Positions 3,981 through 60,899 of a stretch of 64,000 bases of DNA are shown in pieces. Under the pieces are notes generated by a model. It was not told the origin of the DNA. It did no database searches and worked only from the letters and a program-made list of their open reading frames with translations. Each line of letters starts with the position of its first letter. Position 1 is the first letter of the stretch. The stretch lies in the IMG/VR virus record IMGVR_UViG_3300037418_003103; one strand, given 5' to 3'. The position numbers were made by a program, and so were the translations under genes. This stretch comes from a virus. Its lineage: Duplodnaviria > Heunggongvirae > Uroviricota > Caudoviricetes.

Positions 3981-4790
3981 ATGTTTTTCTCTCTCAGCTT
4001 CCCTCTTGTATCCGTTTTTCCTATAAGGCGCTATGAAAACCACTCTTGTATCACCCCTTCCAACTCCAACATGCCTTAGTGCCAAGTGTCCACTAACGTC
4101 AAATCCCTCTGAACGAATATAAGTTACATTCCAGTCGGAATTGATAAGAATAAACTTCATATCCGTATTGTTAAGGATCTTTCCAGACTTCTGAGTGCCG
4201 TACCTTGAATTGGGTTGAACTTCCCTAACCTCCACTTCCGATAAGAATATAAAGCAGAGCAGGGCAAATACCTTATGCTCGAAGTATTCTATGTTATCAT
4301 CAAATTGATCCAGAATTACTTCTTCTCCACCCAATGCTCGAAGTTTATCATACTCACCCATTATGGAAAGGCCTGTGTCTAAATTTGCTCTCCATAAATT
4401 CCACTTGAATCCCAGCCAATTAAAATCCTTACCATCATAAACCTCTCCTTTAAAAAAGAAAATACCGACCTTTAGCGTATCTCCCACTCTTTTAATTCGC
4501 AGTATCTCATTATCTGGAAGAAGATAAGTCTTTGTAGATCCATCTATATGTTTCTTGAATATGCCATAATTGTATGGCTTCTTTAATTTAAGGAAGGATA
4601 GGCTTTTCATTACATTTGCAGATACAATGTATCTCTCACTATCCCCTAATAAAAAATTGTCCAGCTCTTTCTGAGGATCGGTTTCAGGTGTAATCAAATC
4701 TGTATAGGCCAGCAGGTGGTTAGCTATCACCCTTTGACGAAGTGACTGGTCTGCTAAAAATAACTTTCCTACATGATTATTAACTTTCAT
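3978..4790 (-). CDS. hypothetical protein
   Basis: 270-aa ORF; degenerate promoter 4793-4838 abuts ATG (leaderless). Confidence 0.55.
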   Translation of the reverse strand: MKVNNHVGKLFLADQSLRQRVIANHLLAYTDLITPETDPQKELDNFLLGDSERYIVSANVMKSLSFLKLKKPYNYGIFKKHIDGSTKTYLLPDNEILRIKRVGDTLKVGIFFFKGEVYDGKDFNWLGFKWNLWRANLDTGLSIMGEYDKLRALGGEEVILDQFDDNIEYFEHKVFALLCFIFLSEVEVREVQPNSRYGTQKSGKILNNTDMKFILINSDWNVTYIRSEGFDVSGHLALRHVGVGRGDTRVVFIAPYRKNGYKREAEREKH

Positions 4791-4792
4791 GC

Positions 4793-4838
4793 TGCAAATT
4801 TAAGACTAATAATTGAAAGGGAAAAATTATTTTCATTG
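4793..4838 (-). promoter_or_regulatory. degenerate promoter copy; -7 TAAATTTG lies 4 nt from ATG
   Basis: gctgcaaatttaagactaataattgaaagg. Confidence 0.4.
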
Positions 4839-5367: not shown

Positions 5368-5676
5368 CTATTCAGAATGTGAGGTAAAAAATTCGTCCAC
5401 ACTCATTTCATTTCCTCTTTCAAATGAACCCTTATCTGTTTTCATGAAAATTTTTAATGCATCGTTGATTTCAACATCGGTTGTTACTTTTATGTTTTGC
5501 TTGGCCAAGTATTCTTTAAATTCCTTCTGGCACTCATAACAAACATAGCCAACTGTTCCGACATAAGTATGACACATTATTTGATCACAGCCCTTTCGGC
5601 TGCATGACATTACGCCCATATTATTTTTTATTTTATTGTAAGGGTTCAGTGGATATATGCGTAGGCGTCTGGCCAC
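5368..5676 (-). CDS. hypothetical Cys-rich (zinc-ribbon-like) protein
   Basis: 102-aa ORF; CSRKGC...CHTY...CYEC. Confidence 0.5.
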   Translation of the reverse strand: MARRLRIYPLNPYNKIKNNMGVMSCSRKGCDQIMCHTYVGTVGYVCYECQKEFKEYLAKQNIKVTTDVEINDALKIFMKTDKGSFERGNEMSVDEFFTSHSE

Positions 5677-5845
5677 TCACATCAATAGAGTACTTCCACT
5701 TCTTATTTTTTTCGTCATAGTGCTTGCTAACACGCGCCTGGGTATAAATAAATTTCTTGGCGTGGCTGGTCAGACTTCTTACCAGATACGTTCCGCTTTC
5801 AGCTGGAAGGTACTCAGGTGTTATTTCTTGCATTTCTATATTCAT
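5633..5845 (-). CDS. hypothetical protein
   Basis: 70-aa ORF; 44-nt overlap with downstream gene, so the true start may be internal. Confidence 0.35.
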   Translation of the reverse strand: MNIEMQEITPEYLPAESGTYLVRSLTSHAKKFIYTQARVSKHYDEKNKKWKYSIDVSGQTPTHISTEPLQ

Positions 5846-6169: not shown

Positions 6170-7234
6170 TTAAGATAATACTAATTCATTCTTTCTTATA
6201 AGGATTCCTGCCTCATTAACAGCGAAGTTATAAGCGGCCATGTTCGCAGTATAAGCAGAACCCACCATCAGAGTTTCCTCGAAGCCATTTACTCTTTTTG
6301 GTTTGGCTCTGGTGTGTGTTGTCCAATGAGTAACACCTGAGAATAACCCGAACAAATTTTCTCCCTTATCAGCAATTTGATCATCAATACTTGCATACAG
6401 GGAATCCATGTGATTGATGGCCTTTGAAGTCTTCTTAGCTTGATCTTCCAAACTTGTAAATATTCTATCATGCCCAAGCACTTCTTTAACCATGGCATCT
6501 GCCAGATTCTTGGTAAGAGGCGTATTCATGAATTTTTGATAAACAAGCATTTGTTTCATGCTCTCAGATAAAGCTGTTTCAATGAGCACAGGCATTGTCT
6601 TTAGCTTTACTTCAAGCGTTGAAGTATGCCTGAACTTTGCCTCTCCTTTCTTATAGAATTTAAAGAATTGATTCTCACAGCTCATTACTTTATCTCCGAT
6701 ACCCACGCTAAGGCCAGTAGACCCATCATTGCTGTCAATGATAGTAACAAAGCGCTCGATTTCTTCATCTCCGATCTTATTAAAACCCTTTATGCCAAGT
6801 TGAAAAAATACCTTGCGGCCACCGTGCAGAGCACCTGCCTTTGTTACCCTGAGTGTATCGCCAAACTTTTCCATTCCACGCAACACCAATTCAACAACCT
6901 CGGCATTTTGAGATACAACATATCCCTCTTTACAGGTATTGAGTGCGTCGCCTGTTTTACTATTATAAAGACCGTAATAGGGTGAAGGAAACGCCTTGGC
7001 CCCCTCATTAGGAGTAATTGCTACCTTCCTAAGTCTTTTACGATCCTTGGCATCAGGATCATCTGAATTCTTAACCATTTTGAAAGTCACGTCATCCTGA
7101 TTAAAGCCAAACAGAACCCGCTTCTCAATAATAAAGTCAAGACCGTATTTTCTAAGCATCCGATTAACCTTATCTCTCAGGTGCTGATCCATACTAAGTT
7201 GAACATTATTAGCATCATTTGTTACAATTTCCAT
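6170..7234 (-). CDS. hypothetical protein (354 aa)
   Basis: long ORF; promoter-like motif 7255-7295 upstream. Confidence 0.6.
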   Translation of the reverse strand: MEIVTNDANNVQLSMDQHLRDKVNRMLRKYGLDFIIEKRVLFGFNQDDVTFKMVKNSDDPDAKDRKRLRKVAITPNEGAKAFPSPYYGLYNSKTGDALNTCKEGYVVSQNAEVVELVLRGMEKFGDTLRVTKAGALHGGRKVFFQLGIKGFNKIGDEEIERFVTIIDSNDGSTGLSVGIGDKVMSCENQFFKFYKKGEAKFRHTSTLEVKLKTMPVLIETALSESMKQMLVYQKFMNTPLTKNLADAMVKEVLGHDRIFTSLEDQAKKTSKAINHMDSLYASIDDQIADKGENLFGLFSGVTHWTTHTRAKPKRVNGFEETLMVGSAYTANMAAYNFAVNEAGILIRKNELVLS

Positions 7235-11261: not shown

Positions 11262-11300
11262 TGTATGCAGTGAAGGAGTTGAACCTCCTGGCCTTTTTGA
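11262..11300 (-). other. tRNA-like T-arm/acceptor fragment
   Basis: the reverse complement reads GGAGG-TTCAACT-CCTTC-ACTGCA; no convincing 5' half found. Confidence 0.25.
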
Positions 11301-11552
11301 TTGGAGAGTGAGGGGGTTAACCTTACTCACTTTACTAATACAATCAAATACTGCGCAGTATTTGATGCTTAAAAACCAATCAAAGTGTACTTCCCTTGTC
11401 ATTTTTACCTGTTCCGTCAAACAGAATGACTTATACTATACTGCACATCTAACTATTAGGCCACAAATATACTACTAATATTTTAAAAAACCAAAACAAT
11501 TCTAAATAACACAATTTCTGCATGCTAACACTCCCTGTGTTATTGAGCAAAA

Positions 11553-15338: not shown

Positions 15339-15443
15339 AACTTATTTATTAATGGAATTATTCATACCCAGATGCTCAGTTGAAAACCCAAGGGCTAGAT
15401 GCATGTACTCCTCACACAATTCTTTCTTCTATCATGCTTATTG

Positions 15444-15875
15444 TTATCTGGTTAGTTTTACCATGAGCTTATCTAAAATATCTGAATTAATAAAGCCAGT
15501 GCTTCCACCAGCGGCATCCTCATCATACAACCAGGCGACGCTACCTTTATGCTCCTGTATTAAATTGTTTAGGATAACTTTTGAATCAGCTAGAGAAACC
15601 CTCTGCTGCTTAGGCTTTACAGAAATGCGACTAGCATACTCCTTGGCTATTTCAGACGCGTTTTCCTTACTCTCCTCTTCATACTCCTCATCCAGCCACT
15701 TAATCTGCTCCCTGCTCATGTCTGTAAACTCCTCAGATATTTGAGAACCATTTGAGAAGCATAATTTAACCACTCTATGATCGGTAAAGATCATCAAACA
15801 CTCTTCATTATCATGTTTTGCATGGTAACGGCCATCCTTATAGGGTGGTCTATCAGAAATCTTAATCCATTTCAT
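15444..15875 (-). CDS. DUF551-like phage protein (MKWIK N-terminus)
   Basis: 143-aa ORF; N-terminal MKWIKISDRPP is shared with the adjacent paralogue. Confidence 0.45.
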   Translation of the reverse strand: MKWIKISDRPPYKDGRYHAKHDNEECLMIFTDHRVVKLCFSNGSQISEEFTDMSREQIKWLDEEYEEESKENASEIAKEYASRISVKPKQQRVSLADSKVILNNLIQEHKGSVAWLYDEDAAGGSTGFINSDILDKLMVKLTR

Positions 15876-16969: not shown

Positions 16970-17275
16970 TTATTTAAAGATGAGCGTTATCTCTGTATCT
17001 CCGCTTATCCATCTCCTGTACGTATGGCCAGACTTAGGAATTACAGTTACATGGCCAGAAGGATGCCAGAGCCTCTCCCAATACAGGGTCTTCCCTCTTC
17101 CAATCACATAACCCTCATGAATATCATGTTCCAGATCGCTGGGCATTATATCCACTCTTCCATTATCATTCTGAAAACGCCTACCAACCATATCGCTGAG
17201 TTCATATATCTTGCAAGTTAGTCTCTTTGTATCTGGAATCTCCCAGAAAAATCCAAATGATTCATGTATTTGCAT
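16970..17275 (-). CDS. hypothetical protein
   Basis: 101-aa ORF. Confidence 0.45.
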   Translation of the reverse strand: MQIHESFGFFWEIPDTKRLTCKIYELSDMVGRRFQNDNGRVDIMPSDLEHDIHEGYVIGRGKTLYWERLWHPSGHVTVIPKSGHTYRRWISGDTEITLIFK

Positions 17276-21309: not shown

Positions 21310-22044
21310 TTAAATATTTAATAAGTTATTAATGTAACTTCCATCATTTTCATTACAACTATATAATTTAGGTACAATATGGCCATCTACGCATGTATGC
21401 ATTTTGTAATTAAAGTCTCTTTTATCATATAGATCTTCAACATCTCTATTGCACTTTTCACATAAAATAAGTGGTCTACCAAGCCATCCCCAGTACCAGT
21501 AATGCAAGCACTCCTTATCTTTTGATATATTTAATGGTACAATTTGACCAGATATTCCACAAGTCTTCAGAGTCTCGAAATTCTCCTTTCCGTATGCCAC
21601 CAGAACTGATGGAGCCCCAGCATTGGCGCTGGCCACCTCACCGCTTACGTGATGAAAATAAAGTCTACCCTCCAGGAATAGCAGCCCATACGCCTTTTTC
21701 CATACTTGTTCAAAGAACATCTTTGTCTCTGTCCTTGCAAATATAAGCGCAATTCCGTTGCCATGCTCAGCTAATTTATTCAGCCAGCTTGCAGCGATCA
21801 ATCCATAAGGTGGATTGCACCAGACTCTTCCTATCCACTTCTTACTAAGTCCATCATCCTCTATAGTAAAATGAGTCTTGGCTGTTGGCCAGGGCCTCTG
21901 AATTGGAGAACAAGGATCTAAATCAAATGGCCCTAATTTTTCAAGGATATGTGGTGGAGTCAGCCACTCATCCTTCATCATTTTTGCGGATTGATGAGAG
22001 CCCATTCCCTTCCTTCCGTCGTGTTCTTCTTGGTTTTCTTGCAT
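21310..22044 (-). CDS. DNA N6-adenine methyltransferase, phage Dam family, with C-terminal Cys-rich extension
   Basis: WLTPP...FDLDPCS...WCNPPYG...IALIFARTETKMF matches the phage Dam family (PF05869-like); NPPY catalytic motif. Confidence 0.75.
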   Translation of the reverse strand: MQENQEEHDGRKGMGSHQSAKMMKDEWLTPPHILEKLGPFDLDPCSPIQRPWPTAKTHFTIEDDGLSKKWIGRVWCNPPYGLIAASWLNKLAEHGNGIALIFARTETKMFFEQVWKKAYGLLFLEGRLYFHHVSGEVASANAGAPSVLVAYGKENFETLKTCGISGQIVPLNISKDKECLHYWYWGWLGRPLILCEKCNRDVEDLYDKRDFNYKMHTCVDGHIVPKLYSCNENDGSYINNLLNI

Positions 22045-23752: not shown

Positions 23753-23995
23753 TCAATTTATAATCAGTTCACACGCATTTAATGGCACTTCGCAACACAA
23801 TTCAACAGTCACAAAAGTTACTTTATTACCTTTCGAATCTTCGTCTTCATAAACATCATACGCTGTTTCAACTTTACCCTTGAATCTTTCCACAAAAGGT
23901 TCCATTTCTATTTTGTCGAAGCCAACTTTTACAAGTTCTTCCATAAGATTATCTTTAATCAGAATTTTATCGCCTTTTTTAATTCCTGGATTCAT
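23753..23995 (-). CDS. hypothetical protein (cassette gene flanked by 44-bp direct repeats)
   Basis: 80-aa ORF. Confidence 0.45.
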   Translation of the reverse strand: MNPGIKKGDKILIKDNLMEELVKVGFDKIEMEPFVERFKGKVETAYDVYEDEDSKGNKVTFVTVELCCEVPLNACELIIN

Positions 23996-24245: not shown

Positions 24246-24584
24246 TTAATTTGTTAAAGAAATAAATTCAACACTACTTATTTTACTACTCTTAAAATCA
24301 TCCACATATTTTTTATAAGCTGCATCAATGCCCTTGTTAACTTCTTCAAGAGAGTAGAAGTCATAAACTATATGAAAACTACTTAAAAAATATACACGAT
24401 TTTCAATCAGTCCTGCCCACCCTAGAGTATATGTTTGACGGAATGGGATTCCAAAGATTACTGATTTTCTAATAACCACCTCAGCACGATATCTTTCTAC
24501 GCCATCAAGCATAGTTATTTTTGTAATATTCTTTTTAATTATTACGGGAATTTCGTTTTTATTCATACATTTCTTTTTGCACAT
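24246..24584 (-). CDS. hypothetical protein
   Basis: 112-aa ORF. Confidence 0.45.
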   Translation of the reverse strand: MCKKKCMNKNEIPVIIKKNITKITMLDGVERYRAEVVIRKSVIFGIPFRQTYTLGWAGLIENRVYFLSSFHIVYDFYSLEEVNKGIDAAYKKYVDDFKSSKISSVEFISLTN

Positions 24585-25131
24585 AAGTTGGATGATAACA
24601 TAATTCTCCGTTTATAATTTGGGCTGGAGCGGTGTAACGATGGGCAGTCTCTTTTTCTGTACTCATTATATGCGATACGCTCCATCCAATTGATTTCAAA
24701 TAATCTGAGATCATAGAACGATGACACTTCCACCAGACAGCTTCTGAGCACATATAAGCTGCACGCCGTTCTAATGCGATTCTTTCAAGAACTCTTATTC
24801 CTTCTTTAAAATCGTCAGTCTCCATATAATCAGCATAAGCCCTAAAAGATGGATGGCGCCAAAGTGTATTTTTTGAACTTGGATTTGTTTTTCTTCTGCC
24901 TCCCAGATCCTTCAAATGAATATATTCAATATTCTTATTCGGAAAATATACTTCTAAATTCTCTTTATTAAAATGAGGATAACGATTGGAGCCTGGATAA
25001 CTTCTAACATCAACAAGAACTTCTATGCTAAATGATTTAAGTATTTGTTCTATCTCTTGTATGCTTCTTGTAGAGTGGCCTATTGTCCATATGCTATTAG
25101 ATGAATTATCTTTCATATTACAAATGTACAT
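24559..25131 (-). CDS. DUF488 family protein
   Basis: IWTIGHSTRS...VLVDVRSYPGSNRYPHFNKENL matches the DUF488 N-terminal signature. Confidence 0.6.
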   Translation of the reverse strand: MYICNMKDNSSNSIWTIGHSTRSIQEIEQILKSFSIEVLVDVRSYPGSNRYPHFNKENLEVYFPNKNIEYIHLKDLGGRRKTNPSSKNTLWRHPSFRAYADYMETDDFKEGIRVLERIALERRAAYMCSEAVWWKCHRSMISDYLKSIGWSVSHIMSTEKETAHRYTAPAQIINGELCYHPTYVQKEMYE

Positions 25132-38538: not shown

Positions 38539-39060
38539 TTATAATTTTTTAAATTTCACAACAGTTAACTCCATGTCTTTTAATTCTTTTTGAAAAATAC
38601 CTCTTACTATTTCCCACGACCCTCCAGCTAATCCGCAACCAATTAGTGGTAAACCTATACGCAGGCCTTTAAAAGTATAATTTATTTTTCGCATGCATAG
38701 AGCAATCGCTTCATAATCTACAGGAGGCCCATAGAGAGAGCCATAAAAAAACTGGGTATAGCAATTCACAACAAATAAAGAATAAAGCAGCGTATCACCT
38801 TCATCAGGATAACGTTCAAATTTTTTATCCCAACTAGAGTACCATAACTTTTCAAAATCAATTTGTCCTAGCTTATTGATGTCTCCAACAAATTTTTTAT
38901 CTTCCAATTTAAAGTTATTACAACCAAAAGCGGATGCCATTTGAGGAGCGATTCCAGCACCCATCTGACAGAAACAATTAGCTCCATGGGCTACAACATT
39001 GAATTCTCCATTTTTAGCCCTTACGATTAAATCACCCTCCACTTCTTGATATTTATTCAT
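38539..39060 (-). CDS. macro domain protein (ADP-ribose binding/hydrolase)
   Basis: GDLIVRAKNGEFNVVAHGANC...GAGIA and LPLIGCGLAGG match macro-domain motifs. Confidence 0.65.
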   Translation of the reverse strand: MNKYQEVEGDLIVRAKNGEFNVVAHGANCFCQMGAGIAPQMASAFGCNNFKLEDKKFVGDINKLGQIDFEKLWYSSWDKKFERYPDEGDTLLYSLFVVNCYTQFFYGSLYGPPVDYEAIALCMRKINYTFKGLRIGLPLIGCGLAGGSWEIVRGIFQKELKDMELTVVKFKKL

Positions 39061-39062
39061 AC

Positions 39063-39815
39063 TTATAATATTTTAACTGTTATTTTTTTATCTTCTATAA
39101 CAATATACTCCTTGGTTTTGTTACCTAGTGTATCAATAAAGTAATATCTTCCACCAGTGGCTCTACCATTTATATCAATTTTTTCAACACCTGTATGTCC
39201 TACAATCTGGATATACTTATTCCTTAGAGTTATTTTATTGGCTTTCATCAAACTCCTAGGCCTTATCCAAATTGGAGACTGTTCAACATCATCTCCATAT
39301 GCATTAGTACCATTAAACATAAAGGCTAATGGTTTATACCTCCATAAATCATTTATGTACTCTTCCAGAGGCTCATCCTCATATCCAACCTCCTGTAGCC
39401 AGACACTGCTCACACCAGCGTGTGTAAACAAGTAATTGTCATGTACATGGCACATTTGAAGATGCTGCTTATTATCTTCTAGTATCTGAGTGATAAATGC
39501 TGCGAAATCAACTTGAAAGCCAGATGTTTGGGTGTACTGTTTAAGCCCGTTAAAATAATGGAAATCATGATTTCCAATAAGCATAACGACTTTTATACCC
39601 TCATTCTCGGCCTGTATTTTCCATTCAATAATTTCTTTAAAATTATTGACCTGCACATGACCTGGAAGGTAAGGAATAATTTTTTTTAATTGCTTATCAT
39701 AAATAGCTGAGTCAAAGTAGTCTCCCAGAAATATAACCTTATCAGGCTTCTCGATTTCAACCATAAGCTTCCAAACATCTCTACCATGAATATCAGGAAT
39801 TGGCAAAATAGTCAT
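39063..39815 (-). CDS. Ser/Thr protein phosphatase-like metallophosphoesterase (lambda PPase type)
   Basis: PDIHGRD (GDxHG), GDYFD (GDxxDRG-like), IGNHD (GNHE) motifs. Confidence 0.7.
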   Translation of the reverse strand: MTILPIPDIHGRDVWKLMVEIEKPDKVIFLGDYFDSAIYDKQLKKIIPYLPGHVQVNNFKEIIEWKIQAENEGIKVVMLIGNHDFHYFNGLKQYTQTSGFQVDFAAFITQILEDNKQHLQMCHVHDNYLFTHAGVSSVWLQEVGYEDEPLEEYINDLWRYKPLAFMFNGTNAYGDDVEQSPIWIRPRSLMKANKITLRNKYIQIVGHTGVEKIDINGRATGGRYYFIDTLGNKTKEYIVIEDKKITVKIL

Positions 39816-46242: not shown

Positions 46243-46846
46243 ACTTAAATTCTTTAATAATGAGATGATTGTTTCTATCTACTTTTGGTAGCAGATAAGG
46301 CTTATATTTATCCCACAGTTCATTCGCAGCGTTCCAATCAAATACTTTATCAAATGTTTCATCACTCATGAAATCTTTTGTGGTAGTCATAGCCACCAAA
46401 GCTGATGTAGGATATTTCTTGAGGGATTTTAAAATTCTTTTTTCAATTTCTCCTACCGATAATTTAGATTGTTTAGCTTGACCAAAAGATATTCTAATTG
46501 CATTCTTCATATCTTCTTCCGTATATCCTCCTGCTTTGTAACCTGCCATAAAATCTCTTCTTACAGAATCTTTGTAAATTGAGTCTTGTGTATAGTTGAT
46601 ATTCTTGTAATGAATATCAAATAGCTTTTCAACAGTATCATTTATTTCAAACAATGGAAGATTACTATCTTTTAAAGATTTAATACCTGTATGAGCTATG
46701 ATTTCAAATAGTTTATCTTCCTTCAATGAACCCTTAAACACTGGATTTGTTATTAGTCTTGCATCATCAGAAGGATTTTCTGGAATTTTAACTATTACAG
46801 CCCCACCATCAACCTGAATAATGGGATATTCTTTATATTGTTCCAT
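46235..46846 (-). CDS. hypothetical protein
   Basis: 203-aa ORF. Confidence 0.55.
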   Translation of the reverse strand: MEQYKEYPIIQVDGGAVIVKIPENPSDDARLITNPVFKGSLKEDKLFEIIAHTGIKSLKDSNLPLFEINDTVEKLFDIHYKNINYTQDSIYKDSVRRDFMAGYKAGGYTEEDMKNAIRISFGQAKQSKLSVGEIEKRILKSLKKYPTSALVAMTTTKDFMSDETFDKVFDWNAANELWDKYKPYLLPKVDRNNHLIIKEFKYE

Positions 46847-47369
46847 AATTAAAATTTTTAAAAGATTTAAATAAAGAAATTATGTTCTCTTTCCCAACAG
46901 GGTTCATGCTATGCACAAAATATTCTGGTAAGGTTTTGTTATGTTCTATAACATAATCAATCAACCATTGTGCACAATGATAGCCTGTTTTATTCATATC
47001 CACTTCAAAACTATCACCCTTATAATTTAATACACCGTTCTGCATGTTGGAATGGTAGTGCCCATCTGCCAAGTCATGGTCAAAGGATATAACATTAGGA
47101 ATTCCGTTATCGGTAATATACTTAACGAAAGCTGGATAATTCCTTACAATAACCCACTCATACACCCTGTACTGTTTTCTTAACTCAACTGGATTTATAT
47201 AGTTTCCAACCTCATAAGGCTGTCTAATATCATCCAAAAACAATCTATACATCGTAATACTTTTTATCTTATTTCCAAATTGATTTGGGTTCAGATGGAA
47301 TAATATCGGTATCGTCAGTCTTATAACTACCCCGCATCCATTTATATTTACCATCATATACTGCCTCAC
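46833..47369 (-). CDS. hypothetical protein
   Basis: 178-aa ORF. Confidence 0.5.
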   Translation of the reverse strand: MRQYMMVNINGCGVVIRLTIPILFHLNPNQFGNKIKSITMYRLFLDDIRQPYEVGNYINPVELRKQYRVYEWVIVRNYPAFVKYITDNGIPNVISFDHDLADGHYHSNMQNGVLNYKGDSFEVDMNKTGYHCAQWLIDYVIEHNKTLPEYFVHSMNPVGKENIISLFKSFKNFNYGTI

Positions 47370-49940: not shown

Positions 49941-51974
49941 TTATAGGTAACTTGAAACGCTCTCTAGTGTTGTATTTTCATCGAATACCAAGTCAGCCTC
50001 CTCAACGGATTCAACTACTTCACCTGATATCGCGTTTAAGATATGGCCCTGATTAATCTTATCCCATTTAATGCTTGAATCTCCTGAGTCAAGAGTAACA
50101 AAGGTTTTTAAGAAACTCCTCATTTTAATAGCATCAGACTTATTAGACACCATCGCAGAACCCATGGCCATGTCAAGAAATACAAGACTTCTAGTAGGAA
50201 TATGTAGAGCCTGTAAGTAAGCCGTTTCTCCTTCATTTTCAAGAACCATTGCGTGTTCAACAGTTTCAGGTAACCAATGAGAATTAGCCTCTGGATATTT
50301 TCTAAGCATCCAGCCAACCTTTGTCTTTGGTTTAAATTTACTGTAACTTGAAGGACCTCTGAATATTCTAGCTTCGGTTATCACCCATTCGGTATTTTTA
50401 GGCAACTTACCGACCTCTATGTCAAGGTATTCAGCATTTTGAGATGAATGCCCTGTATTATCTCCAGAGTAAACAATTGCAGACCCCATGTGATGGCTGC
50501 CATTCCAGCCAACCTTTACAAAGTTATTATCACTTCCCAGCACAAGTGCAGATAAATCAATATCATGCCTACCATGCCAATGAACATACATCCTGATAGT
50601 CTTTCCCTCAGGTATAACCTCAACAGTGCCTTTAACTTTCCCATCAAGTGACAAAGACGACGCTCTATTATTCATCCCCAGAGGTCTGTAGTATAGCGCT
50701 CTATCAATGAATACCTTCTTATTTTTAAGATCATCACGTTTCATACTTCTTACTCGATCAAGAATTAAAGTTTTAATCTCATTCACAAGATTTGCATCAA
50801 GAGGCACAAGTGAGTCATAAGTAACAACATTTGATTTAGAAGCAGAAGCAAGAATCGCTCCTCGGCCTTCCTGTTCTTTATCTCTGTCAGTAAAGTGATT
50901 ATAAGCCGTCGCTAATGAAGATAGACTTTCATTTCCATCAAGCCATACATTAATAGCTTTAATACCGAACACCCTTACACAATGGTCAAGCCTACGTGTG
51001 AACGCGCCTGGTCTTTTCTTAAGAAGTTCCAATACACTTGCGTCATTTTTACCCAACAGTTCTTCAACTCTTGAATTGAATGTGCGTAATTCCTTAGGTT
51101 TATTTCTAAGAAGATTAGCATATTTAAAGAGGTTAGGATAGCGTTTTGCATTATCCTTTGTTAAGGGATTAAGATAGAATAATAGTCTAAGAAATTTCTC
51201 GCGATACACCTTGAACGCTTCTTCCAAATTATAGGAAGCATCAAGAGTCGCTGAAAGAACCTTAACGTGTCTCCTGGTAGGTTTTTTAAATTTGGTATTC
51301 TCCTTCAGACCTTCATCTCCACCAGAGAAAGCAGAATAGATTCTGAGCACACTAACCGCATCTCTGGTAGGAAGTACGTTAATGCTTTCGTCATTAAGAA
51401 GTCTCTTACCAACGTAAGCAGCAGTCTCCTTAAATTTAATATCAGAAAAATTGAACTTCACACCTTCGTGAATAAAGTCATCAATAATTTGTTTATCAAA
51501 CTTGCTGATAGAAGTTGTAGATGAAAGAATATCCGTAAAGATGCTATCAAACTGAGATTTTGAGAGAAGGCTTATATTTTTGTATTTTACAGGTTCAAGC
51601 TTAAATTCTCTTTCCAGATAGCCAGCGTCCTCAGGCCTCCAATTACCAAAACTCCAATAATGCAGTATTGCGTTTACGGCAAACTCAAGGTATGACATAG
51701 CAAGTACAGACTGAGGGAAATTACGATAAATGGGTTCAAATTTACTACCATCACCCAGGACCTTTTGAATGCCCTTCATAAGGTCATTATAAACTTCGGT
51801 AAGTGTTTCTTCACTTTGAACACTAAGGCGATCAAATAAATCTTTTGTCACCACGTAGCCATACTTCATTAATTCGTGATTAATTTGGTGCGCTAGTGCT
51901 TCATTGTTGTTATCTGAGCTAGGCAGCTCCAGATATAATCCCTTTCTCTTTTGGAAGGAAATGAAATGCTTCAT
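49941..51974 (-). CDS. large protein with C-terminal TerD-like domain
   Basis: 677-aa ORF; VKVGWNGSHHMGSAIVYSGDNTGHSSQNAEYLDIEVGKLPKNTEWVITEARIF matches the TerD GDN..G / E.i.vdL signature. Confidence 0.55.
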   Translation of the reverse strand: MKHFISFQKRKGLYLELPSSDNNNEALAHQINHELMKYGYVVTKDLFDRLSVQSEETLTEVYNDLMKGIQKVLGDGSKFEPIYRNFPQSVLAMSYLEFAVNAILHYWSFGNWRPEDAGYLEREFKLEPVKYKNISLLSKSQFDSIFTDILSSTTSISKFDKQIIDDFIHEGVKFNFSDIKFKETAAYVGKRLLNDESINVLPTRDAVSVLRIYSAFSGGDEGLKENTKFKKPTRRHVKVLSATLDASYNLEEAFKVYREKFLRLLFYLNPLTKDNAKRYPNLFKYANLLRNKPKELRTFNSRVEELLGKNDASVLELLKKRPGAFTRRLDHCVRVFGIKAINVWLDGNESLSSLATAYNHFTDRDKEQEGRGAILASASKSNVVTYDSLVPLDANLVNEIKTLILDRVRSMKRDDLKNKKVFIDRALYYRPLGMNNRASSLSLDGKVKGTVEVIPEGKTIRMYVHWHGRHDIDLSALVLGSDNNFVKVGWNGSHHMGSAIVYSGDNTGHSSQNAEYLDIEVGKLPKNTEWVITEARIFRGPSSYSKFKPKTKVGWMLRKYPEANSHWLPETVEHAMVLENEGETAYLQALHIPTRSLVFLDMAMGSAMVSNKSDAIKMRSFLKTFVTLDSGDSSIKWDKINQGHILNAISGEVVESVEEADLVFDENTTLESVSSYL

Positions 51975-51988
51975 ATATAAAAATTTAG

Positions 51989-52110
51989 TGGGGAAGGGTG
52001 GAATCGAACCACCGACGCGGCCATTAAAAGTGGAGTAAGTTAAAATATGTTATCACAGAGATAAAATCATCTCAACTAATTACCTGCTCTACCAACTGAG
52101 CTACTTCCCC
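51989..52110 (-). tRNA. tRNA-Lys(TTT) interrupted by a 49-nt insertion (52034-52082) in the 5' strand of the anticodon stem
   Basis: acceptor GGGGAAG/CTTCCCC, D-arm GCTC-AGTTGGTA-GAGC, T-arm GGTGG-TTCGATT-CCACC; removing the insert gives a canonical 73-nt tRNA with anticodon stem GGCCA/TGGCC and loop CTTTTAA. Confidence 0.65.
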
Positions 52111-52134
52111 GAAAAAAAAAAGCTATATAATCAA

Positions 52135-52183
52135 ATGAAGTGTGTTTTTTATCAATTAAAGTAACTTCATTTATGTTACAGCT
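52135..52183. repeat. hairpin element copy 1 (ATGAAGT...ACTTCAT, conserved loop TTTTTATCAATTAAAGT)
   Basis: 7-bp stem; paralogue at 52286-52340 has compensatory stem changes. Confidence 0.45.
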
Positions 52184-59978: not shown

Positions 59979-60899
59979 TTATTTGCTTAATTGTAACATG
60001 ATTCCGCCGCTTCCGCTTTGAACGCTTGGAAGTACTCCATTCCATTTATCAATCTTCAAGTATTGAATGTATAAATCAGTTAATTGAGCTTGTTTAACTT
60101 TTGTTTCCTGAGCCTCACCTCCAGCTCTGATAACTCTTGCTGAACTATCAGCTCTTGCGACGGCAATTTTTCTTTGTCCATCAGCAATAGCAACAAGTTT
60201 TTGATTTTCTGCAACCTGAACGTCCTGAATAGCTTTGGTCTTTGCTTCAATACTTGCTTGTAGTGATGGTGGCGGAATTATATTGGTTCTTAACTGAGAA
60301 ATGATAAACCATTTGGAGAGCCTTTTATTCGCCTCTTGAACGATATTTCCTTCAAATCTCTCTCTTTCGTTAAAGATACTATCAACACTCCACTTATTTG
60401 CCACGTCATTGACTGCGCCTACAATGGCATTTTGAAGCCACCCCTGTTCAATCCCCTTAATATCAAGTCTAAGATTAAGGAACATGTCACCAACATCACC
60501 TGGCTTAAGTGAGTAATTAAATTTAGGGTGAATAGTAGCTGAAAACCCTCCCTTTGTGATTACTTGTTGTTGAGGATACTCAATAGTTTGTTGATAAATT
60601 GGAAATTCGTATAGAATAGCAACCCATGAATTAATGACCACCCATCCAGTTTTATACTCTAATTTAGATACGCCTCTATCGCCGCCAGTAAGATTTACTT
60701 TAATACCGACATGACCCGCATCAACACGCTCTAATTTAAGTGGATTAATTAAAGAAATAAGAAGTCCAATAATAAGTATTCCAAATCCCTTCCAGAATAA
60801 GGGTGACGCAGCAAACGGTGCCTTTATTTTATCTGAATTGTTTTTGAAAAAAATAAATGTTGCAAAAAGTGTAACAACTGCTAAAAAAATAGAAATCAT
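59979..60899 (-). CDS. SPFH/band-7 (HflK/C, prohibitin-like) membrane protein
   Basis: N-terminal TM; C-terminal AENQKLVAIADGQRKIAVARADSSARVIRAGGEAQ is an HflK/C-like helical repeat. Confidence 0.6.
   Translation of the reverse strand: MISIFLAVVTLFATFIFFKNNSDKIKAPFAASPLFWKGFGILIIGLLISLINPLKLERVDAGHVGIKVNLTGGDRGVSKLEYKTGWVVINSWVAILYEFPIYQQTIEYPQQQVITKGGFSATIHPKFNYSLKPGDVGDMFLNLRLDIKGIEQGWLQNAIVGAVNDVANKWSVDSIFNERERFEGNIVQEANKRLSKWFIISQLRTNIIPPPSLQASIEAKTKAIQDVQVAENQKLVAIADGQRKIAVARADSSARVIRAGGEAQETKVKQAQLTDLYIQYLKIDKWNGVLPSVQSGSGGIMLQLSK

Follow-up and report, generated by a model that had tools for sequence, protein, structure and literature searches.

A phage tRNA-Lys gene with a short structured insert in its anticodon stem, and related inserts in other phages

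Short unexplained introns in the tRNA genes of large phages were reported in 2019, when "enigmatic" tRNA-gene introns were described in the Lak megaphages (Devoto et al., PMC6784885). Those introns were conserved, could not be classified with Rfam and had no explained mechanism, and the authors expected them to be common in large phage genomes (PMC6784885). Here we describe a tRNA-Lys(UUU) gene of 122 nucleotides (nt) at positions 51989-52110, minus strand, of a 64,000-nt stretch of Caudoviricetes DNA (IMG/VR record IMGVR_UViG_3300037418_003103; the whole stretch is called the window below). This gene is interrupted between tRNA positions 28 and 29, within the anticodon stem, by a 49-nt insert. 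The Lak introns resemble it in that they, too, are short and interrupt tRNA genes of very large phages. They differ in that their borders, as set by tRNAscan in eukaryote mode, lie at or near the anticodon loop of Phe, Gly, Thr and Tyr genes (PMC6784885), and in that their description includes neither a shared fold nor a site at 28/29 in the stem nor any case from Lys or Glu genes, a comparison that we made by description only.

Archaeal bulge-helix-bulge (BHB) introns are also tens of nucleotides long, can sit in the anticodon stem and occur in several tRNAs per genome; they are removed by proteins, an endonuclease and the ligase RtcB, whereas for the present insert such removal is proposed only. 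The present insert differs from them in having no BHB, in being carried by bacteriophages and in having a fold of its own, with helices P1 and P2 and a UUACU motif, that BHB introns lack. The group I introns of tRNA genes (Leu UAA, fMet, Arg and Ile, and Asn and Asp in Patescibacteria; PMC13011429) likewise interrupt bacterial-type tRNA genes, and pairing of their exons in the anticodon stem matters, but they are longer than 200 nt, are placed in the anticodon loop, contain a P3-P9 catalytic core and are detected by Rfam. With 49 nt, a position in the stem and no Rfam match even at E values up to 10, the present insert is not of this class, as an earlier note on this DNA had held. In the YrlA/Ro60 (Rsr) system a tRNA-like RNA is encoded beside the gene for a helical RNA-binding protein, in an RNA-repair context and with an extra helix as a protein-binding site, an arrangement that the present locus may resemble; there, however, YrlA has no normal anticodon arm and its tRNA-like module is embedded otherwise, and the candidate partner here carries a TerD and not a vWA domain. 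T4-type repair of tRNA-Lys (a cut by PrrC, mended by Pnkp and Rnl1, with nick sealing by Rnl2) shares with our case the rejoining by phage enzymes of a broken tRNA-Lys(UUU), the same tRNA species, but it follows one host cut in the loop, whereas the present case would need two programmed cuts in the stem, and we know of no nuclease that makes two programmed cuts there.

The gene reads from 52110 to 51989 on the minus strand. Exon 1 (52083..52110, tRNA nt 1-28) comprises the acceptor 5' strand GGGGAAG, UA, the D arm (GCUC AGUUGGUA GAGC), A26 and the two residues G27 and G28, after which the insert begins (52034..52082). Exon 2 (51989..52033, tRNA nt 29-73) continues with CCA, the loop CUUUUAA, UGGCC, the variable loop GCGUC, the T arm (GGUGG UUCGAUU CCACC), the acceptor 3' strand CUUCCCC and the discriminator A; the CCA end is not encoded. 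The D loop AGUUGGUA and the T arm GGUUCGAUUCC hold the conserved tRNA residues, and TAGCTCAGTTGGTAGAGCA in exon 1 is invariant among homologues. The earlier note had taken these parts for one 122-nt tRNA unit with proper acceptor, D and T arms, and the Rfam tRNA model RF00005 agrees: its match spans exactly 51989-52110, minus strand, at 48.6 bits (E 2.5e-7 for the whole window; model positions 1-71), above the gathering score of 29 bits and with the 7-bp acceptor stem and both arms in place. Our own covariance model R1 scores the gene at 111 bits.

To assign the borders we used a script that tested every single deletion for a restored anticodon stem. Only removal of 52034-52082, at 28/29, gives a 5-bp stem of Watson-Crick pairs throughout (GGCCA/UGGCC) with the loop CUUUUAA; the variant at 29/30 requires a U.G pair. 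This deletion, which the earlier note had also chosen, yields in silico a perfect 73-nt tRNA-Lys(UUU), and ARAGORN calls the spliced sequence tRNA-Lys(ttt); the RNA so joined would have the 5-bp anticodon stem and the 7-nt loop proper to this tRNA. On the unspliced gene, ARAGORN in default mode reported no tRNA, and with its intron option (-i) it returned tRNA-Stop(tta) with a 34-nt intron at 32/33, a wrong solution that places the intron in the canonical loop. RF00005 spans the whole unit. A megablast of the locus against GenBank phages gave no match. The window has about 33% GC and all of its genes lie on the same strand; nowhere in it did we detect an uninterrupted tRNA gene of normal length.

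We then asked how the exons behave across homologues, for which 13 diverged copies were aligned after removal of their inserts in silico. All of the cloverleaf cells (273/273) are paired in these spliced homologues, against 79.5% in shuffles and 39-44% in slid structures, and 12 cloverleaf pairs show double changes. Nine copies have G:C and four have C:G at pair 27:43, the two bases of which stand on opposite sides of the insert. Across the junction, the spliced window sequence can also be aligned gaplessly with phage tRNA-Lys genes that have no intron, such as that of PaBG (90% over nt 6-67). As judged from these alignments, the joined exons are selected as tRNA; full cloverleaf pairing and compensatory changes therefore exclude chance juxtaposition or a dead gene as a general explanation. 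In the explanation that we prefer, set out below, 51989-52110 is a functional, selected phage tRNA-Lys(UUU) gene interrupted by an insert of a conserved family.

Homologues were sought with BLAST and pattern scans and then with a covariance model built from 13 copies. Homologous insert-bearing tRNA genes were found in more than 15 independent phage or metagenome sequences, with inserts of about 40-55 nt, and the window insert is far beyond chance. The cultured carriers are the Rak2-like jumbo phages Cronobacter GAP32 (two Lys copies), Pectobacterium CBB, Serratia BF, six Erwinia pEa_SNUABM phages, Erwinia Kaldavass and Xanthomonas XbC2; the others are IMG/VR and metagenome contigs, marine contigs, contigs binned as Bacteroidota metagenome-assembled genomes (MAGs) and three relatives of the window phage (L050, L051 and L053) that were found via the neighbouring protein described below. 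By deletion scan the 28/29 site is shared by the window gene, 10 other Lys copies and 3 Glu copies, and it is the unique solution with Watson-Crick pairs throughout in every Lys copy and in all Glu(UUC) copies tested; hand parsing places the insert at the same site in L050, L051 and L053. The same approach gave no firm borders or anticodons for the copies in CBB, L012 (4671), L028 (9523) and L023 (5059, 5394 and 5596) or for those at 1227, 1530 and 2038 of the window. The covariance model from 13 copies added tRNA-Glu(UUC) genes with a 28/29 insert in GAP32 (record 298388-298501, unannotated) and in three metagenome relatives, and L051 has an insert-bearing tRNA with the anticodon UGA, so that the insert is found across Lys, Glu, Asn (GUU) and UGA-anticodon tRNAs.

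The Asn case comes from the closest relative, L053 (Logan SRR33230217 contig, 2866-2987), whose neighbour protein is 78% identical to that of the window and whose orthologous gene has a 49-nt insert at the same site. Its anticodon loop is UUGUUAA (GUU) where the window has CUUUUAA (UUU), with body and insert otherwise very similar, an apparent isoacceptor switch between close relatives as far as the two sequences tell. Identity between the two is 40/50 in the insert and 24/28 and 37/46 in the exons. Because these values are similar, the insert is constrained about as strongly as the tRNA.

In GenBank, interrupted copies are labeled as tRNA-Lys of 122-125 nt in some records, as tRNA-Pseudo in phage BF and as a small coding sequence in one. 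Since standard annotation thus misses or mislabels interrupted genes (ARAGORN in default mode, BF and GAP32 being examples), phage tRNA inventories are undercounted. GAP32 (JN882285; L032 pieces 15389-15502, 17084-17207 and 23872-23994) has annotation problems at its interrupted tRNAs: the B copy of tRNA-Lys is overlaid by a coding sequence, GAP32_431A, for a "putative membrane protein". In the A copy the universal G53:C61 pair is lost to a C at position 53, and this copy scores below the Rfam threshold.

The labels and the damaged copy raise the question of whether such genes are decaying pseudogenes, or hosts to a selfish miniature mobile insertion, that have no function at the RNA level and are tolerated thanks to other tRNA copies. 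The tRNA-Pseudo label in BF and the broken pair and low score of the GAP32 A copy would fit such an origin, as would the likeness of the inserts within one genome, which is expected of a spreading element. We nevertheless give this explanation only a slim chance, in view of the complete pairing and many compensatory changes in 13 diverged copies, the conservation of the insert to the same degree as the exons and the identical site in Lys and Glu genes of distant phages. A related candidate, a target site TTAC for an IS200/IS605-like element, was set aside because inserts of 45-50 nt are too small to hold two transposon ends.

The insert itself has a fold that can be followed through the alignments. 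In the minimum-free-energy fold of the window gene, an unpaired leader, UAAUU (insert nt 1-5; 52078..52082), is followed by the 5' strand of helix P1, AGUUGAGAUG (nt 6-15; 52068..52077), and by that of an inner helix P2, UUAUC (nt 19-23; 52060..52064), which matches the motif AUUAYC described below. The P2 3' strand, GAUAA (nt 29-33; 52050..52054), matches the motif GGU(C)AA; it is followed by the P1 3' strand, UAUUUUAACU (nt 36-45; 52038..52047), and by a 3' tail, UACU (52034..52037), that abuts exon 2, is conserved in the alignment and, with the last base of P1, makes up the UUACU motif. All of these elements lie on the minus strand. P1 (AGUUGAGAUG/UAUUUUAACU) and P2 belong to the minimum-free-energy fold of the whole precursor, at -38.2 kcal/mol with a z score of -3.2. 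RNAalifold, applied to a plain MAFFT alignment of ten inserts of the same subtype (type II), independently predicts both helices, with double changes in 8 of 12 pairs, and in L053 a U-A pair of P1 has changed to C-G, a compensatory change relative to the window. Of the helix cells of type II, 87.5% are paired; the figure for shuffles is 68.9 +/- 3.0% (0/500), and a shift of the structure by one column lowers pairing to 48-53%. The hairpin GAGAU/AUCUC that the earlier note had seen in the insert is present in the sequence, but it competes with the P1/P2 fold, which is both the conserved and the minimum-free-energy one, and it is not conserved in L053.

Two subtypes can be told apart. Type II inserts, those of the window, L023, L028, L038, L045, L050, L051 and L053, have a leader of 1-7 nt, P1, an inner P2 (AUUAYC/GGU[C]AA), the return strand of P1 and, up to the border of exon 2, a UUACU(UC) tail; no block of the type II insert alignment (A5) is better conserved than TTAC(T), which L050, L051 and L053 have as well. 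Type I inserts, those of the Rak2-like phages, have an A-rich leader (UAGAAACCC), one hairpin and then UUAC(A/G)GCA...AUAACU(CAU), and 5 of the 7 pairs of their hairpin show double compensatory changes. The window insert has the marks of the 28/29 family, which are a leader, a covarying P1 with or without an inner P2, and the UUAC(U) tail ahead of exon 2. On the evidence of these comparisons, the insert is a structured, conserved RNA element and a member of a phage family with two subtypes.

Covarying helices together with invariant unpaired nucleotides are the usual mark of a catalytic or tertiary-structured RNA, and we considered whether the insert might process itself, as a very small new RNA in which the tRNA body holds the exon ends and P1/P2/UUACU catalyses both excision and joining without proteins. 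Host-independence would ease spread, and the carriers do have unrelated hosts (Enterobacteria, Xanthomonas, Bacteroidota-assigned contigs and possibly a Rhodococcus phage). Yet no known self-splicing intron is as small as 40-55 nt, the sequences of the two subtypes have little in common besides UUAC, the distances from P1 to the borders vary, and Rfam ribozyme families (hammerhead, twister, pistol, hatchet and HDV-like) gave no match at E values up to 10 in 51950-52150. We therefore regard self-processing as very unlikely.

By its wording, the earlier note had implied an analogy to archaeal and eukaryal introns. Size and a non-canonical position in the stem are indeed typical of archaeal introns (PMC4090602) and would suit a BHB intron cut by an EndA-like endonuclease. 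We looked for the motif by hand and by script in eight pre-tRNAs, the window gene and seven homologues, in both geometries and three cut registers. The 4-bp central helix was never paired 4/4 at the borders and no 4-bp helix with 3-nt bulges could be drawn there in any register, so the analogy did not hold. The hosts, moreover, are bacteria, and the EndA/Sen-type tRNA-intron endonuclease family had no Pfam match among the open reading frames (ORFs) of at least 120 amino acids (aa) in the 64 kb of the window. A BHB intron is in our view barely credible. Neither kind of motif that the earlier note had named for the insert, bulge-helix-bulge or Rfam ribozyme, was thus found.

Several other candidates were tried and rejected. 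A group II intron does not agree with a length of 49 nt and ends UAAUU...UUACU instead of GUGYG...AY; the sole group II trace in Rfam lies on the opposite strand and scores 17.9 bits against a gathering score of 52.5. A spliceosome-like arrangement of GU and branch site fails because the borders are immovable and L028, SNU50 and the Glu copies have no GU. An internal promoter (TTGAGA-17-TAACAT with an extended -10, 52075-52047) is not conserved in homologues, and the site count of 7 compares with 5.1 expected by chance. A pairing between the UACU tail and AGUA at exon nt 6-9 resembled covariation (AGUA/UACU as against GUUA/UAAC) but is broken by the Lys copy of L016, SNU50, the Glu copy of L016 and L051. 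Mimicry of the T-stem and acceptor 3' strand by the 3' segment of type I inserts (GCAAC...) shows no covariation in L010, L012 and L016. The earlier note's proposal of a new kind of insert thus stands insofar as the insert is unlike any curated intron or ribozyme class; it does not stand as something unique to this genome, and short unexplained tRNA inserts were already known from Lak phages in 2019 (PMC6784885).

Fifteen nucleotides after the tRNA begins an ORF of 677 aa (49941..51974, minus strand) with an all-alpha N-terminal domain and a C-terminal TerD fold, which we take as a candidate partner of the interrupted tRNA. The protein belongs to a large uncharacterised family with more than 200 homologues (phrog_33734). 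Its N-terminal domain appears, in structure, weakly Ro60/TROVE-like; sequence searches show TerD alone, with no Pfam TROVE match and no Ro60 in a profile search of PDB sequences. Homologues lie directly downstream of insert-bearing tRNAs at every type II locus examined (window, L023, L028/L043, L038, L045, L050, L051 and L053), with identities among them down to about 25%. Other homologues adjoin clusters of ordinary tRNAs together with a tmRNA (in a gut phage contig), tRNAs (in Rhodococcus phage Weasels2) or nucleotidyltransferase genes (in XacN1 and Xoo-sp13). The position next to tRNAs is kept across very different phages and Bacteroidota-assigned contigs. In the Rak2-like phages no homologue is detectable.

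This neighbour brings in the possibility that the insert is permanent. The RNA would then be a tRNA-like non-coding RNA with a fifth arm, P1/P2/UUACU, that docks a protein, in the window lineage the 677-aa TerD-domain protein, and the complex would either serve the repair or quality control of RNA, in the manner of the Ro60-Y RNA particle, or draw off tRNA nucleases as a decoy. The earlier note had named both readings, an insert that needs splicing or processing and a regulated or decoy tRNA. Besides the adjacency at type II loci, there are precedents in the bacterial and phage Ro60 orthologues encoded beside tRNA-like Y RNAs (PMC4201824) and in the TROVE proteins found in the RNA-repair sets of some jumbo phages (PMC7824862). 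The conserved motifs of the insert resemble a protein-binding site, and GAP32 has intron-less Lys and Glu tRNAs beside its interrupted ones. Other observations are harder to reconcile with a permanent arm. The similarity to Ro60 is weak, with neither Pfam nor the PDB-sequence profiles in its favour, and at the window locus the tRNA model alone matches, with no match to Rfam YrlA. In contrast to YrlA, a complete anticodon arm is kept, with a 7-nt loop (U33, A37) and sensible anticodons, and the anticodon change from UUU to GUU in L053 is a clean one. The Rak2-like carriers have no detectable 677-aa homologue, homologues also stand beside ordinary intron-less tRNAs in MT835874 and Weasels2, and the insert-bearing tRNAs of L050 and L051 are dispersed over the tRNA regions and not placed solely beside the protein. 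We regard a permanent fifth arm as unlikely, although it is the main rival of the explanation that we prefer.

The explanation that we prefer, and to which we assign evenly balanced confidence, is that the insert is a real intervening sequence, excised by proteins, and that the exons are rejoined by phage RNA-repair enzymes. Because an insert at 28/29 would disturb the anticodon stem, to judge from the contacts between ribosome and tRNA, translation would need its removal. We envisage that the precursor would fold as a tRNA with the insert as a third helix protruding from the anticodon stem in a three-way junction, and that a protein recognising P1/P2/UUACU, or the junction, would cut both borders, with strand 39-43 keeping the exon ends side by side. 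Enzymes of the phage or the host would then heal the ends and seal them: an esterase for cyclic phosphates or phosphates (for example cRec, the cyclic-phosphate processing Receiver), a kinase and a ligase of the Rnl1, Rnl2 or RtcB type. Rnl2-type ligases, such as T4 Rnl2, prefer a nick in duplex RNA, and a nick in the duplex anticodon stem would suit such an enzyme. Removal would leave a normal 73-nt tRNA requiring CCA addition. The likely benefit would be a tRNA supply made dependent on phage enzymes; host anticodon nucleases target Lys(UUU) and Glu(UUC) tRNAs, and an alternative benefit, which is speculation, would be a precursor hidden from them.

Certain components for such a route are at hand. 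The window encodes a cRec protein (46833..47369, minus strand; PF20274, 75.8 bits, E 4e-21) 4.6 kb downstream of the tRNA-Lys gene and on the same strand; it is possibly an RNA-end healing enzyme, with a link to the tRNA that we infer. The predicted role of the cRec domain is the opening of RNA ends with a 2',3'-cyclic phosphate, and it has operon links to RNA ligases in jumbo phages, in which RtcB, Rnl1 and Rnl2 are common (PMC7824862). A calcineurin-like metallophosphoesterase (39063-39815) and a weakly matching Macro-domain protein (38539-39060), both on the minus strand and called by Pfam, look together with cRec like pieces of a toolkit for RNA-end healing or for NAD/ADP-ribose. The type I carrier CBB is reported to encode rnlA and a second RNA ligase (PMC5259590).

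A number of points weigh against protein-mediated excision. Spliced RNA has so far been observed in no carrier. Our enzyme search in the window, with Pfam on all ORFs of at least 120 aa and PHROGs on ten of them, found neither an RNA ligase nor an endonuclease candidate. From P1 to the borders the distance varies, with leaders of 1-11 nt and tails of 4-20 nt, and the insert alone gives no fixed cleavage rule. Because GAP32 also has an intron-less tRNA-Lys(UUU) and an intron-less tRNA-Glu, its interrupted copies are not strictly needed for decoding. The conserved neighbour protein with its weak Ro60-like features, finally, suits a scaffold role for the RNA equally well. The wider proposal, that of a fifth kind of intron made up of small structured phage tRNA introns with a dedicated pathway that is neither BHB, group I or II nor spliceosomal and that ends in joining by a repair ligase, is more tentative, and we rate it somewhat below an even chance.

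The general phenomenon, short unexplained tRNA introns in large phages, is not new, given the Lak report (PMC6784885). What appear to be new are the 28/29 site as defined here, an architecture of P1, P2 and UUACU, the extension to cultured Rak2-like phages and the link to a neighbouring gene that is itself conserved: we found no description of the 28/29 insert family in the literature searched, and the genome papers of CBB and the pEa_SNUABM phages are silent on it. A categorically new intron class would be established only if splicing by a new route were demonstrated. If excision takes place, anticodon-stem intervening sequences of about 50 nt would add a new RNA-processing route to bacterial systems; they could explain the several RNA ligases and end-healing enzymes of jumbo phages, and they bear on the arms race over tRNA-Lys and tRNA-Glu cleavage. 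If the inserts do form such a fifth kind, "repair" enzymes such as Rnl2, cRec and their relatives would gain a programmed physiological substrate, as might the TerD-domain neighbour, and a phage could gate its Lys, Glu and Asn tRNAs or shield them from host anticodon nucleases. These ideas are directly testable, since the carriers include several phages in culture that infect Cronobacter, Pectobacterium, Serratia, Erwinia and Xanthomonas.

The window holds four further tRNA-like elements, all on the minus strand. A 129-nt gene at 1227-1355 (Rfam 44.4 bits) has a class II-type D arm, an anticodon stem CCAGA/UCUGG with the loop CGUCUAA (G at position 33) and a structured insert of about 57 nt in the variable region (CUAUGAG...CUCAUAG). 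For an 89-nt gene at 1530-1618 (Rfam 44.9 bits) the ARAGORN call is tRNA-???, with an anticodon of 2 bases; its anticodon region is about 13 nt too long, and a canonical arm is not rebuilt by any single deletion. The 128-nt gene at 2038-2165 (19.9 bits with R1; acceptor UCUUAUG/CAUAAGA, T arm AUAGG/CCUAU) also bears an insert, with one parse giving a 45-nt insert at 28/29 (GACGC UUAAUAA GCGUC) and another a CAC anticodon. The fourth element, 183 nt at 11264-11446, has a long interior between ends that resemble those of a tRNA (acceptor GUGCAGU/ACUGCAU; T arm GGAGG UUCAACU CCUUC) and no Rfam match at the gathering threshold.

Among the other ORFs of the window, all on the minus strand, are an SPFH/Band 7 protein (59979-60899), a protein also noted in Rak2-like phages, a Dam-type methyltransferase (21310-22044), a DUF488 protein (24559-25131) and a DUF932 protein (6170-7234); nearly all others have no Pfam family.

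Unusual arrangements were also seen in other carriers. On the metagenome contig Ga0075157_10006538 (L023), four insert-bearing tRNAs stand in tandem, and one of them, a 206-nt tRNA-like gene (5596-5801, minus strand), apparently has two type II inserts around an internal hairpin resembling a T arm. The type II interrupted tRNA-Lys genes of L028/L043, L038 and L045 lie on Bacteroidota-MAG contigs of about 16-162 kb, and the tRNA of L028 has as neighbours histidine kinases, a WYL-WCX regulator and a fusion of ThiF with a nitroreductase, which suggests that these loci are cellular or part of an integrated element and do not belong to a free phage. In Rhodococcus phage Weasels2 (L036, NC_041887), an unannotated gap after the 677-aa homologue (4393-4800) contains four TTACTTC and four GCTCACC-like motifs that alternate with pieces of tRNA, among them the 5' half of a tRNA and a loop (CUCUUAA) like that of Lys-CUU, and from these motifs the region may represent actinophage tRNA genes with several inserts.

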